A stretch of 64,000 nt of DNA from Escherichia phage vB_EcoM_WFbE185. Positions 14,444 to 18,202 of this stretch are shown here, piece after piece. Position numbers and translations under genes: made by a program. Under the pieces are notes generated by a model that saw only the letters and a list, made by a program, of their open reading frames with translations, had not been told where the DNA came from and did no database searches. The stretch lies in the sequence record MK373778.1, one strand, 5' to 3'. The first letter of the stretch is position 1, and every line of letters starts with the position of its first letter.

Positions 14444-15442
14444 TTATGATACTAATTCAATCCATGCAGGACGCAGAACATCTTGCACCATTCGGACTAA
14501 TTCTTTCTTAACAAGATTCGGATTATCGGATGATGTTAATACAATACCTTCACGAGAAGTTTCTTCCAGAATATCTTGAACAGTCAATCCCATCACTTTG
14601 CCAAAATCTTTTGGCGTTACAGTCCCAATCTTAGAAATCACATTATTAACACGGTTTAATGTAACATAACAAGCTAGGACATCAAGCAAGTTTTTGTCAA
14701 TTTCGGTTAATGGAACCTGAGTTTTAATAGGCTTATCAGACTTTTTCTTTTCACTGAATTTAGAGTTCTTGCACTTAATAGCTACACGAGTACCGTTTGG
14801 CAGCCATTTAGGGAAACAAGGCTTCAGAACATAACCTTCTGCTGTATTATCGCCAATAACATTAGCATCAAATACACAATTATTTGCTTCTACAAGGTCT
14901 TCTGACGCAGTAGCATTATAAGCGGCTAAGACGGAATCAAGGTCATTTGGAATCGCGATAAGAGCATCGAATGTTCCACGACCGAGCATTGGTGCCATTT
15001 TAAAACCGAATTCATTACAGAAATCTTGCATTTCGTAATCGGTCAAATACGTATTATCACCACTTTCTGTATTGATAAGGATATCGAACACATAAAAATC
15101 TTTTTCACCGTAGTCAACACCTTTCTGGATTCCACCACCAGCGAATTCACCAAAGACCTGATATGATACAGCTCGAGAACTACCCATTACTTCTTGAACG
15201 TTTTTAATAGCCTTATCATACTTCTTGAGTACAATTTCATAACCATAAAAATCTTCTGCTGGAAGAATAGGGCCTGTGCGCTTGGCGCATGTGACGTTGT
15301 CACGTTCAATTATTAACGAGAAGTTAGTCCCATGGATTTTCTCACGTGCTACCCAAACACCAGTAGTCAAACCATTAGTGTAGAGTTTTTCAATAAACTT
15401 AGAGTTGTAGTGGTTTTCAAGACTGCTGTATTTCTTAAACAT
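14444..15442 (-). CDS. rnlB: RNA ligase 2
   Basis: 332 aa; [21 protein letters not shown]... with motif I KIHGTN matches recalled T4 Rnl2. Confidence 0.9.
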
Positions 15443-16010: not shown

Positions 16011-16084
16011 TCCCGTATTATTTGGTTTGTGCCATTATATACATCAATCTCAAGTTGTGTTTTGTATGCTTTAAAAACGAAGAA

Positions 16085-16098
16085 AGGGGCCGAAGCCC
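16085..16098 (-). terminator. terminator after hoc
   Basis: GGGGC-CGAA-GCCCC; U-run on the minus transcript. Confidence 0.6.
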
Positions 16099-16105
16099 CT
16101 TACGA

Positions 16106-17524
16106 TTATGGATATGTATAGATGATACCAGTTTCCAAAGCAGTTTTATGGATGACGTATCCATTACGTGATTCTTGAACATCAACTTCTGGATAGTCTT
16201 TCATCATCTTCTGAAGAGTGTAACGATGCAGGTAGTATTTACTATCTGCATCTTCAGTTTTCCAATCTTTACCTTCTTCAGTCATTTTTTGTATTTCATC
16301 CATAACCCACCAACCGCACCAGATGTAAGCTGAAGTACGATGTGGAAGAGGATGAACATAAGGTAATTCACCTTCTGGTTCTGGAGCAACTTTATCGGTT
16401 ACCTGAACTTGTCCTTCTGCTGTAATAGTTTTGCTATCATAATCAGTAGCAGTAACGACGGCAGTCACTTCAATAGTTTGACTTCCAATAGATGAGGTAT
16501 CAACGGTATATACATTAGTTGACCCTTCTACAGGAGAAGAATCTTTCTTCCATGAATAAGCAATTTGTGCTTCTTCTGGTGCACCAGTAACATTAGCTGT
16601 AAATGTAGCCGAAGCATCTTGTTGAACATTAATAGAAGGAGGAGTCAATGTAACCTGTGGATTCATTGTCTTCTTATTAACCGTTAATGATACTTCATTC
16701 GAAGTAACTTCCTTTGCATCATAATCTGTCGCAGTTACTTGGGCTACACATTTAATTCTTTTTACTCCACTTGTAGTTGGAGTATAGCTAAATGTAGAGT
16801 TAGTTTCTCCACCAATCTGTGAATCATCTACATACCACTGATACGTAGCAGACGCTCCAACCGGTTGAGAAGCTAAGGCGGCAGTAAATTGAACTGGGGT
16901 TCCAATTACTCCGGCTGAAGGACTATTGGGAGTTACTGCCAACGTAGTTGTCTGCGTCTTTTTATTAACAGTCAGTGACACTTCATTAGAAGTAACGCTT
17001 AGTGCGTCATAATCTGTTGCGGTTACTTGAGCCACACACTTAATTCTTTTTACCCCGCTTTCGGCAGGAGTGTAATTGAATGTAGCGTTAGTTGCTTCGC
17101 CAACAGGAGAATCATCTACATACCATTGATAAGTAGCGTTTGCGCCTGATGGCTGCGAAGCTAAAGCGGCAGTAAATTCAATAGCTGTTCCGATTACTCC
17201 AGCGTCAGGGCTATTAGGAGTTACAGCTAAGGTAGTCGTTTGTGTCTTATTTTGAACTGTGATAGTTGTAGAAGCTTCTGCTGTTTCAGCTTCAGCTTCT
17301 GGAACTGTATTTGTTGCAACTACTTTAATAGACTTTTGACCTGCAGGTCCTTTTAACACATAATCAAAAGTTGCTTCAGCTCCATCTTGCGAAACATCAT
17401 CTACAGTCCAAGCATATGTAATAGTTCCACCTCCAGTTTCACCACTGGGAGTAGCAGTAAACTGCTGAGTCTGATCTATAACTCCAGTAGGTGTTTTAGG
17501 AGTTATATCAACTGTAAAAGCCAT
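16106..17524 (-). CDS. hoc: highly immunogenic outer capsid protein Hoc, four Ig-like domains
   Basis: 472 aa; repeated Ig-like modules plus C-terminal capsid-binding domain; position between 24.x and inh. Confidence 0.85.
   Translation of the reverse strand: MAFTVDITPKTPTGVIDQTQQFTATPSGETGGGTITYAWTVDDVSQDGAEATFDYVLKGPAGQKSIKVVATNTVPEAEAETAEASTTITVQNKTQTTTLAVTPNSPDAGVIGTAIEFTAALASQPSGANATYQWYVDDSPVGEATNATFNYTPAESGVKRIKCVAQVTATDYDALSVTSNEVSLTVNKKTQTTTLAVTPNSPSAGVIGTPVQFTAALASQPVGASATYQWYVDDSQIGGETNSTFSYTPTTSGVKRIKCVAQVTATDYDAKEVTSNEVSLTVNKKTMNPQVTLTPPSINVQQDASATFTANVTGAPEEAQIAYSWKKDSSPVEGSTNVYTVDTSSIGSQTIEVTAVVTATDYDSKTITAEGQVQVTDKVAPEPEGELPYVHPLPHRTSAYIWCGWWVMDEIQKMTEEGKDWKTEDADSKYYLHRYTLQKMMKDYPEVDVQESRNGYVIHKTALETGIIYTYP
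16670..17245 (-). repeat. tandem direct repeat (2 x ~288 bp) inside hoc, encoding two near-identical Ig-like domains
   Basis: Protein segments TTTLAVTPNSP...VSLTVNKKT occur twice in tandem; the underlying DNA copies (about 16670-16957 and 16958-17245) are clearly alignable. Confidence 0.8.
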
Positions 17525-17533
17525 AAGTTATCC

Positions 17534-18202
17534 TTATTTTAATGTTACGAAAGAAGAATTACGAGTTTCACGAATTAGAACTGATCCATCGCGATTAATA
17601 TAATAAATTAAGCTAAATAATGTTTGGTGAGCAGAAGCGTGCACAAAACTGGTTGGGCGAGATTTCCAATCTGGGGTTTCGTCTATCCATTGATAAATCC
17701 ACCAAGGAACAGTAACATATCCTGGGCCTTTGCCTAATTTAATGAGTGTAGGACTAAAATTTTCAGGCAGAACAAATTTTACTTCTTTATTTACCTCTGG
17801 CTCAGGCTCTTTTTCAGATTCAACAACCTGAGTAATTGCTTCTTCGAATTTATCATGGTCGAATTCTTTTTCTTGTTCGACAACTTCTAATACTTCAACT
17901 TGTTCTGTTGGAGAATCAAACAACAGAATAGCTTCTTCTTTAACTTCTTCGTTGGTGAAATTAACACCGTCCACATCATCTGCGGCAGTAATTAAATCGG
18001 TGATAGATAATCCATCAGTTTCAGGTAATGGTTCATCAGCCAGTGCGTTAAGAGCTTCTTCGATATCAATAACAATATTATCGAATGATTTTGTTTTCTT
18101 AACACTAATGCCAAATTGTTCCGCATATTCAAACAGTTTAGCTTTGGCTTCCTTTTTATCAGAAAGAGCACGTAACTCTTCAATATAGTCTTTATCGATC
18201 AT
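17534..18202 (-). CDS. inh: Inh, inhibitor of prohead protease
   Basis: 222 aa; synteny between hoc and uvsW; acidic central region. Confidence 0.6.
   Translation of the reverse strand: MIDKDYIEELRALSDKKEAKAKLFEYAEQFGISVKKTKSFDNIVIDIEEALNALADEPLPETDGLSITDLITAADDVDGVNFTNEEVKEEAILLFDSPTEQVEVLEVVEQEKEFDHDKFEEAITQVVESEKEPEPEVNKEVKFVLPENFSPTLIKLGKGPGYVTVPWWIYQWIDETPDWKSRPTSFVHASAHQTLFSLIYYINRDGSVLIRETRNSSFVTLK

Follow-up and report, generated by a model that had tools for sequence, protein, structure and literature searches.

An anciently diverged pair of Ig-like modules in the four-domain Hoc of a Mosigvirus mar005p1-like phage

The 64,000-nt stretch of DNA analyzed here (hereafter, the window) derives from a T4-type phage resembling Mosigvirus mar005p1, its identity to genomes of that species being 98.0–98.4% over 22 kb. 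On the minus strand, a coding sequence for 472 amino acids plus stop (16106..17524) was recognized as a four-Ig allele of hoc, the gene for the highly immunogenic outer capsid protein, from the list of open reading frames (ORFs), a phmmer search, and synteny. The gene is placed between inh and a homolog of 24.3, as in T4, RB27, and moskry, and comparison with the loci annotated in T4, RB27, moskry, and JS09 confirmed the conserved position downstream of inh, upstream of 24.3/24.2, and next to uvsW. According to the ORF list, inh (inhibitor of prohead protease, 222 aa; 17534..18202, minus strand) ends 9 nt upstream of hoc; this neighbor is 669 nt long in the Mosigvirus records moskry, JS09, and AV116 and 681 nt long in Tequatrovirus records. 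Just after the hoc stop codon, a probable intrinsic terminator can be read from the sequence (16073..16100, minus strand), consisting of AGGGGC-TTCG-GCCCCT followed by a T-rich run (TTCTTCGTTTTT), and phage G2469 has an annotated terminator in the corresponding position. In the window, the T4 late-promoter core TATAAATA was counted 19 times, where 7.3 would be expected, and 0 of 100 shuffles reached 19. When this core was sought just upstream of hoc on the minus strand, none was found nearby; therefore, hoc probably either shares a transcript with inh or is served by a variant promoter. A 332-aa ORF (14444–15442, minus strand) that may resemble T4 RNA ligase 2 lies three genes downstream of hoc, beyond the 24.3 and 24.2 homologs.

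In the phmmer search, the window protein matched the T4 Hoc chain 5vf3_Z, together with four further PDB entries, at an E-value of 8e-219. The alignment fell into two pieces, with T4 residues 1–109 corresponding to window residues 1–109 and T4 residues 93–376 to window residues 189–472; the window protein thus amounts to T4 Hoc enlarged by 96 residues in the middle. The enlargement claimed in the original prediction was thus confirmed, T4 hoc measuring 1131 nt (376 aa) and the window product 472 aa. In T4, Hoc is a fiber of about 180 angstroms in which three Ig-like domains stand on a conserved capsid anchor (PMC10385173). It binds the center of the gp23 hexamer and is dispensable in the laboratory (PMC10385173; PMC9958956). 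The window protein's C-terminal capsid-binding domain (aa 377–472; 16109..16396, minus strand) corresponds to T4 Hoc 281–376 and is near-identical to it, the segments YVHPLPHR, WCGWWVMD, and QESRNG being unchanged in the alignment. It carries the conserved Tyr293/His295, Arg300, Trp309/Trp310, and Glu-Ser-Arg-Asn-Gly loop of the Hoc capsid-binding domain, whose limits and conserved residues were taken from Fokine 2023 (PMC10385173). Judging by this near-identity to the T4 domain, one monomer of the window Hoc would sit in the middle of every gp23 hexamer on the mature capsid. Every testable defining feature is present, and the window protein is Hoc.

Four Ig-like domains precede the capsid-binding domain, all encoded on the minus strand. 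Ig-like domain 1 (D1; aa 1–92, 17249..17524) is predicted by AlphaFold to form a beta-sandwich with a pLDDT of 82–93. It is followed by repeat copy A (aa 93–188; 16961..17248), an A-type D2 Ig/PKD module delimited by Pfam PKD/Ig_2 matches, repeat finding, and alignments, and by repeat copy B (aa 189–284; 16673..16960), a B-type D2 Ig/PKD module in which residues 195–253 give the best Pfam PKD stretch and which is the counterpart of T4 Hoc domain 2. The last, Ig-like domain 3 (D3; aa 285–376, 16397..16672), is I-set/Ig_3-like (Pfam Ig_3 and I-set, 289–373; pLDDT 88–94) and aligns to T4 Hoc domain 3. Pfam matches to PKD (7e-10), Ig_2 (9e-8), and I-set/Ig_3 thus mark the Ig string expected of a Hoc protein. 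In the AlphaFold model (31 homologs, mean pLDDT 83), four confident beta-sandwich domains cover residues 1–380, with a pLDDT of about 80–95 over the Ig domains and lower values in the C-terminal domain. The best Foldseek matches in the PDB were likewise four-Ig strings, such as Sidekick Ig1–4 and Dscam1 Ig1–4, at large rmsd and not Hoc itself; such matches to a predicted model support the domain count and are silent on function. The predicted architecture of four Ig-like domains plus a capsid-binding domain is accordingly the one recovered by Pfam, the T4 alignment, AlphaFold, and Foldseek. Compared with T4 Hoc (PDB 5VF3 chain Z, 8T1X; 376 aa), which is the same gene in the same place, D1, D3, and the C-domain are collinear and near-identical, the single T4 D2 equals window copy B (91% nucleotide identity), and what differs is a single A-type D2 that the window protein has in addition, placed after D1 and before the D2 equivalent to that of T4, which makes four Ig domains where T4 has three.

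The two central modules form a tandem repeat that is exactly in frame. Tandem Repeats Finder reported a 288-nt period in 2.0 copies at 16668–17248, with 76% matches, 0% indels, and a score of 684, and a second repeat search paired 16668–16955 with 16956–17243 at the same 76%. These limits, the module boundaries of A (17248..16961) and B (16960..16673), and the interval 16670–17245 of the original prediction agree apart from a few bases. Of the 288 nucleotide positions, 69 differ between the copies, and the reading frame is intact. In protein they share 80 of 96 residues (83%, close to the "roughly 85 percent" first proposed), compared with 33–37% between A or B and D1 or D3 and 23% between D1 and D3, and so the two modules are indeed more alike than either is to the other Hoc Ig domains. 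In 100 codon-shuffled genes, the best in-frame 288-nt self-identity averaged 41% and never exceeded 43%, against the observed 76%. The longest in-register run shared by A and B in the window genome is 17 nt. Amino acid differences between the copies were not concentrated in loops: strands make up 54% of the module and hold 8 of the differences, with the other 8 elsewhere; because of this even placement, no claim of surface targeting is made.

The divergence between the copies is deep. By the Nei-Gojobori method, A and B differ with a pS of 0.63, a dS of 1.38 (about 1.4), a pN of 0.11, and a dN of 0.12 (dN/dS about 0.09), the dS value resting on 71.5 synonymous sites and being near saturation and hence imprecise. 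For the orthologous D1, D3, and C-domain segments, dS between the window and hoc from 16 other phages of Tequatrovirus and Mosigvirus was at most 0.40, so that the A/B value is at least three times the deepest orthologous dS of the remaining gene in the clade. Modules were assigned to type A or B using the 19 sites of a relaxed majority rule, the strictly diagnostic sites numbering only 7 because the module ends are mosaic. Mean dS was 0.39 within the A type, about the same within the B type, and 1.02 between types. Inside each type, pN/pS was about 0.2; therefore, neither copy is decaying and both are maintained.

Each copy has its closest kin in other genomes. Window A shows 97–99% nucleotide identity to module 1 of moskry, mar005p1, and teqskov, and 85–92% to module 1 of RB27 and PST and to the single modules of RB14, teqdroes, and IMGVR L004 (teqhad, 83%). 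Window B is 98%, 97%, and 91% identical to the single modules of AV116, JS09, and T4, respectively, but only 76% identical to its own neighbor A. In a neighbor-joining tree of 33 modules, unrooted since no outgroup module could serve to root the A/B split, A and B formed separate clades in 200 of 200 bootstrap replicates, with single-copy modules nested in both. A search for a young duplicate among 40 multi-module Hoc cluster representatives found no within-protein pair above 85% (median 79%). The near-identity at synonymous sites expected of young copies is thus missing, and orthologs elsewhere are closer than the neighboring copy. The duplication is not recent, contrary to the original prediction, and the copies are anciently diverged.

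The A+B gene is also widespread. A megablast search of hoc against 50,697 phage records returned 658 matching records. Many independently sequenced genomes, including moskry, mobillu, teqskov, PST, RB27, and ime09, carry a collinear 1419-nt hoc at 88–97% identity (in many genomes, 92–97%), and many other records have the T4-type form, matching in two pieces over 1131 nt. The ratio of forms was taken from 60 rows sampled at even spacing from the 658, in place of a full census; about 23 had the 1419–1425-nt form and about 29 the 1131-nt form. The A+B gene is thus common to hundreds of GenBank phages in Tequatrovirus and Mosigvirus, and three-Ig and four-Ig forms were both found in both genera. 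The 12 nearest genomes, which match the window at 98.0% identity or more across 22 kb, comprise 5 read as four-Ig and 7 read as three-Ig; eight of these calls come from the matched hoc length, and four (FL18 and the three mar005P1 records) are deduced solely from the 22-kb span being about 288 nt shorter. The four-Ig, 472-aa Hoc proteins of moskry, Mosigvirus mar005p1 (OZ035759), teqskov, RB27, and ime09 share the same layout and A+B order. Over the whole gene, window hoc is 95–97% identical in nucleotides to the Mosigvirus four-Ig alleles and teqskov and 89–91% identical to RB27 and ime09, differing from these known four-Ig alleles by point differences only; in the moskry record, a repeat_region is already annotated inside hoc. 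The window four-Ig Hoc is therefore an ordinary, common, and already sequenced allele.

Hoc length changes in discrete steps across these relatives. Among the best 120 cluster representatives of a protein search, the lengths 376 aa (80 representatives), 472 aa (29), and 568 aa (7) predominated, and these contain one, two, and three D2-type modules, respectively. The whole series comprises 283, 376, 472, and 568 aa, and across the 376-, 472-, and 568-aa forms close relatives differ by whole repeat units, as a copy-number-polymorphic cassette would. The 568-aa proteins of UGKSEcP1/2 have five Ig domains, UGKSEcP1 adding a third D2-type module, and at the other extreme stand the two-Ig, 283-aa proteins of PNJ-9 and BYEP01, which lack D3. 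The BYEP01 protein, from a Tequatrovirus, comprises D1, one D2 (89% nucleotide identity to that of T4), and the C-domain, an architecture described as a "variant Hoc" for PNJ-9 (PMC11853027). Shared by these variants are a conserved C-terminal anchor and an Ig string varying by whole modules. Muldoon Hoc has 10 Ig domains in 1174 aa, and homologs with variable Ig strings, up to ten in that phage, are on record (PMC10385173).

A few further hoc variants were observed. Only four close relatives came out of a scan of viral contigs, which contributed little to the census but did bring to light a length series of the Dhakavirus/Gaprivervirus type. This second type of hoc, about 50% identical and found in IME341/VR20-like phages, varies separately, through lengths of 282, 377, and 472 aa. 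Its repeated module is the D3-like one beside the capsid anchor, which IME341 (L005) duplicates instead of D2, and the 282-aa form is without the middle domain; the copy number of Ig domains in Hoc has here changed independently. Separately, hoc is 6 nt longer (1425 or 1137 nt) in ESh32, EPIMAM01, and PYps32T, and measures 1137 nt in L003. In these longer genes, D2 begins at nt 282 rather than 276, implying a two-codon insertion in domain 1. Disrupted copies were seen in phage T2 (MH751506; a 1117-nt remnant with many in-frame stops and no annotated CDS), Yersinia phage PST (1420 nt, with an additional base and an annotation that begins only at an internal start), and Shigella phage JK42 (1133 nt, two CDSs), and these are either pseudogenes of a dispensable gene or homopolymer sequencing errors. 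Many Hoc proteins come from assemblies labeled Escherichia coli or Shigella sonnei, under names such as "endonuclease" or "PKD domain-containing protein"; these look like phage DNA within bacterial assemblies, bearing uninformative or wrong names.

Single-module alleles fall into both types, RB14, teqdroes, teqhad, and IMGVR L004 carrying an A-type module and T4, T2, JS09, AV116, L002, and L003 a B-type one, and several of them bear ends of the opposite type. To locate the junctions, each three-Ig gene was modeled as a four-Ig gene minus 288 nt, and the point at which the register switches was searched for. In CDS coordinates, the switch lies at nt 288–293 in AV116 (against moskry), 300–308 in G2469 and JS09, 321–338 in T4 and L002, 483–508 in teqhad (against ime09), and 528–569 in RB14 and L004, that is, in at least five distinct crossover intervals among the alleles. 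The switch stands out best in teqhad against ime09, where 1131 nt contain 18 mismatches and the left register gives just 3 before nt 495, the right register few after 483. Crossovers scattered in this way are what repeated unequal homologous recombination between A and B would be expected to leave. In the five-Ig UGKSEcP1, the three modules are an ime09-like A (98%), a T4-like B (90%), and an ime09-like B (97%); therefore, modules have also been added through out-of-register exchange between alleles. T4 recombination needs homology of roughly 50 bp or more. Since the longest run shared by the copies is 17 nt, the A/B repeat should be fairly stable within a lysate. The original prediction also regarded the repeat as a substrate for recombination-driven length variation, and this holds for the relatives, which vary by whole 288-nt modules and include chimeras, but the repeat in the window itself is a poor substrate.

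The account that we consider highly probable is that A and B are old paralogs, with unequal recombination acting between modules and one-module derivatives as its products. According to this account, an in-frame tandem duplication of the middle Ig/PKD module would have occurred before the divergence of the present Tequatrovirus and Mosigvirus hoc genes. Purifying selection would since have retained both copies, with synonymous sites diverging almost to saturation. The steps between 376, 472, and 568 aa would be whole 288-nt modules and would result from out-of-register homologous recombination between modules, either inside one genome or between co-infecting phages, and the 376-aa alleles of T4 type would mostly be one-module derivatives of the A+B gene. 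That the A+B gene is the older form and most 376-aa alleles are derived seems reasonably likely, because the A/B split is deep relative to the flanks and three-Ig alleles match particular four-Ig alleles on both sides; the direction is read from divergence depths and chimeric breakpoints. Chimeric single modules could also be produced by in-register recombination between an A-only and a B-only allele. An ancestral four-domain state in the clade had been named in the original prediction as evidence against a new duplication; four-domain Hoc did in essence pre-exist in the clade, the direction of change being drawn from unrooted comparisons.

The likeness of A and B (83% of amino acids, against 33–37% to D1 or D3) and a repeat that is exactly in frame and free of indels are what a recent in-frame tandem duplication in the phage's own lineage, enlarging a T4-like three-Ig Hoc, would leave behind. 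Such an event is nevertheless very improbable, given the A/B dS of about 1.4 (pS 0.63) against at most 0.4 for orthologous hoc segments over two genera, the separation of the types in every bootstrap replicate, the presence of the A+B gene in hundreds of records, and the closer kin of each copy elsewhere (97–99% for A with the A modules of moskry, mar005p1, and teqskov; 97–98% for B with the JS09 and AV116 module). The synonymous differences are no frame artifact, the ORF being intact and its frame conserved. An artifact of assembly or sequencing, such as an expanded repeat, has nothing specific in its favor beyond the general observation that tandem repeats are sometimes mis-assembled. With 24% of positions differing, reads place unambiguously in either copy, the ORF is intact, and the collinear 1419-nt hoc recurs in independently sequenced genomes. 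An assembly artifact was therefore rejected on the difference between the copies and this recurrence, and its probability is negligible.

A further alternative retains the deep divergence and reverses the order of events: A and B would once have been alleles of a single D2 in different lineages, the copies having diverged before they were joined, possibly repeatedly, by out-of-register recombination between A-only and B-only hoc genes during co-infection, with the three-Ig form ancestral. A-only alleles (RB14, teqdroes, teqhad, IMGVR L004) and B-only alleles (T4, JS09, AV116, L002, L003) do exist, the five-Ig UGKSEcP1 was apparently assembled from modules of different alleles, and hoc alleles move between genera, as the comparison of teqskov with the window indicates. 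However, the flanking D1, D3, and C-domain lack a matching deep split (dS at most 0.4, against about 1.0–1.4), and joining single-module alleles out of register would depend on short homology at the module boundaries only. Several three-Ig alleles in which an A portion is followed by a B portion each match one four-Ig allele throughout (teqhad with ime09, G2469 with mar005p1, and AV116 with moskry). Since both halves of the chimera and both flanks match one particular four-Ig allele, deletion from an A+B gene is favored, and the fusion of separate alleles is unlikely.

The Ig domains of Hoc bind fucosylated mucin glycans (PMC9271167). In phage PNJ-9, the D2 residues S183, L184, and T185 are needed for MUC2 binding, and in phage PNJ-6 the MUC2-binding residues are E29 and G33 in domain 1 (PMC11853027); the binding domain thus depends on the phage, being D1 in PNJ-6 and D2 in PNJ-9. 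The D1 of the window protein retains E29 and G33. The motif NEVSLT, which includes the S-L-T residues of the PNJ-9 type, occurs in both copies (aa 180–185 in A and aa 276–281 in B) and in 165 of the 169 D2-type modules examined. The extra domain would lengthen the Hoc fiber by one Ig unit and would add a second D2 surface with the S-L-T residues that bind fucosylated MUC2 in PNJ-9. Most likely, the fourth domain would change the reach or avidity of capsid adhesion and would affect no essential step of infection. A more far-reaching proposal, which we regard as doubtful, is that Hoc Ig number may be a fast-switching, selected setting for fiber length and avidity. Three-Ig and four-Ig alleles would then be co-maintained within one species, the four-Ig form would present two MUC2/fucose-binding D2 surfaces, and synonymous divergence between A and B would be favored for slowing module loss by T4-type recombination.

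Variable Ig number in Hoc has already been published (PMC10385173; PMC11853027). A search of the literature for a four-Ig T4-type Hoc or for A/B paralogs found no explicit description; what it yielded was general remarks about variable strings of Ig domains and about the deletion of domains. Not explicit in the literature searched, and modest refinements of it, are the ancient paralogy of A and B, the T4-type three-Ig form as a repeated one-module derivative, and the polymorphism within one species. The familiar "three Ig domains" are thus one of several natural Hoc alleles, which is relevant to work on display, vaccines, and mucus adherence. Rather than a new duplicate, the second copy of D2 is old and conserved. 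Close relatives with different domain numbers provide natural pairs for testing fiber length or D2 dosage against adhesion.
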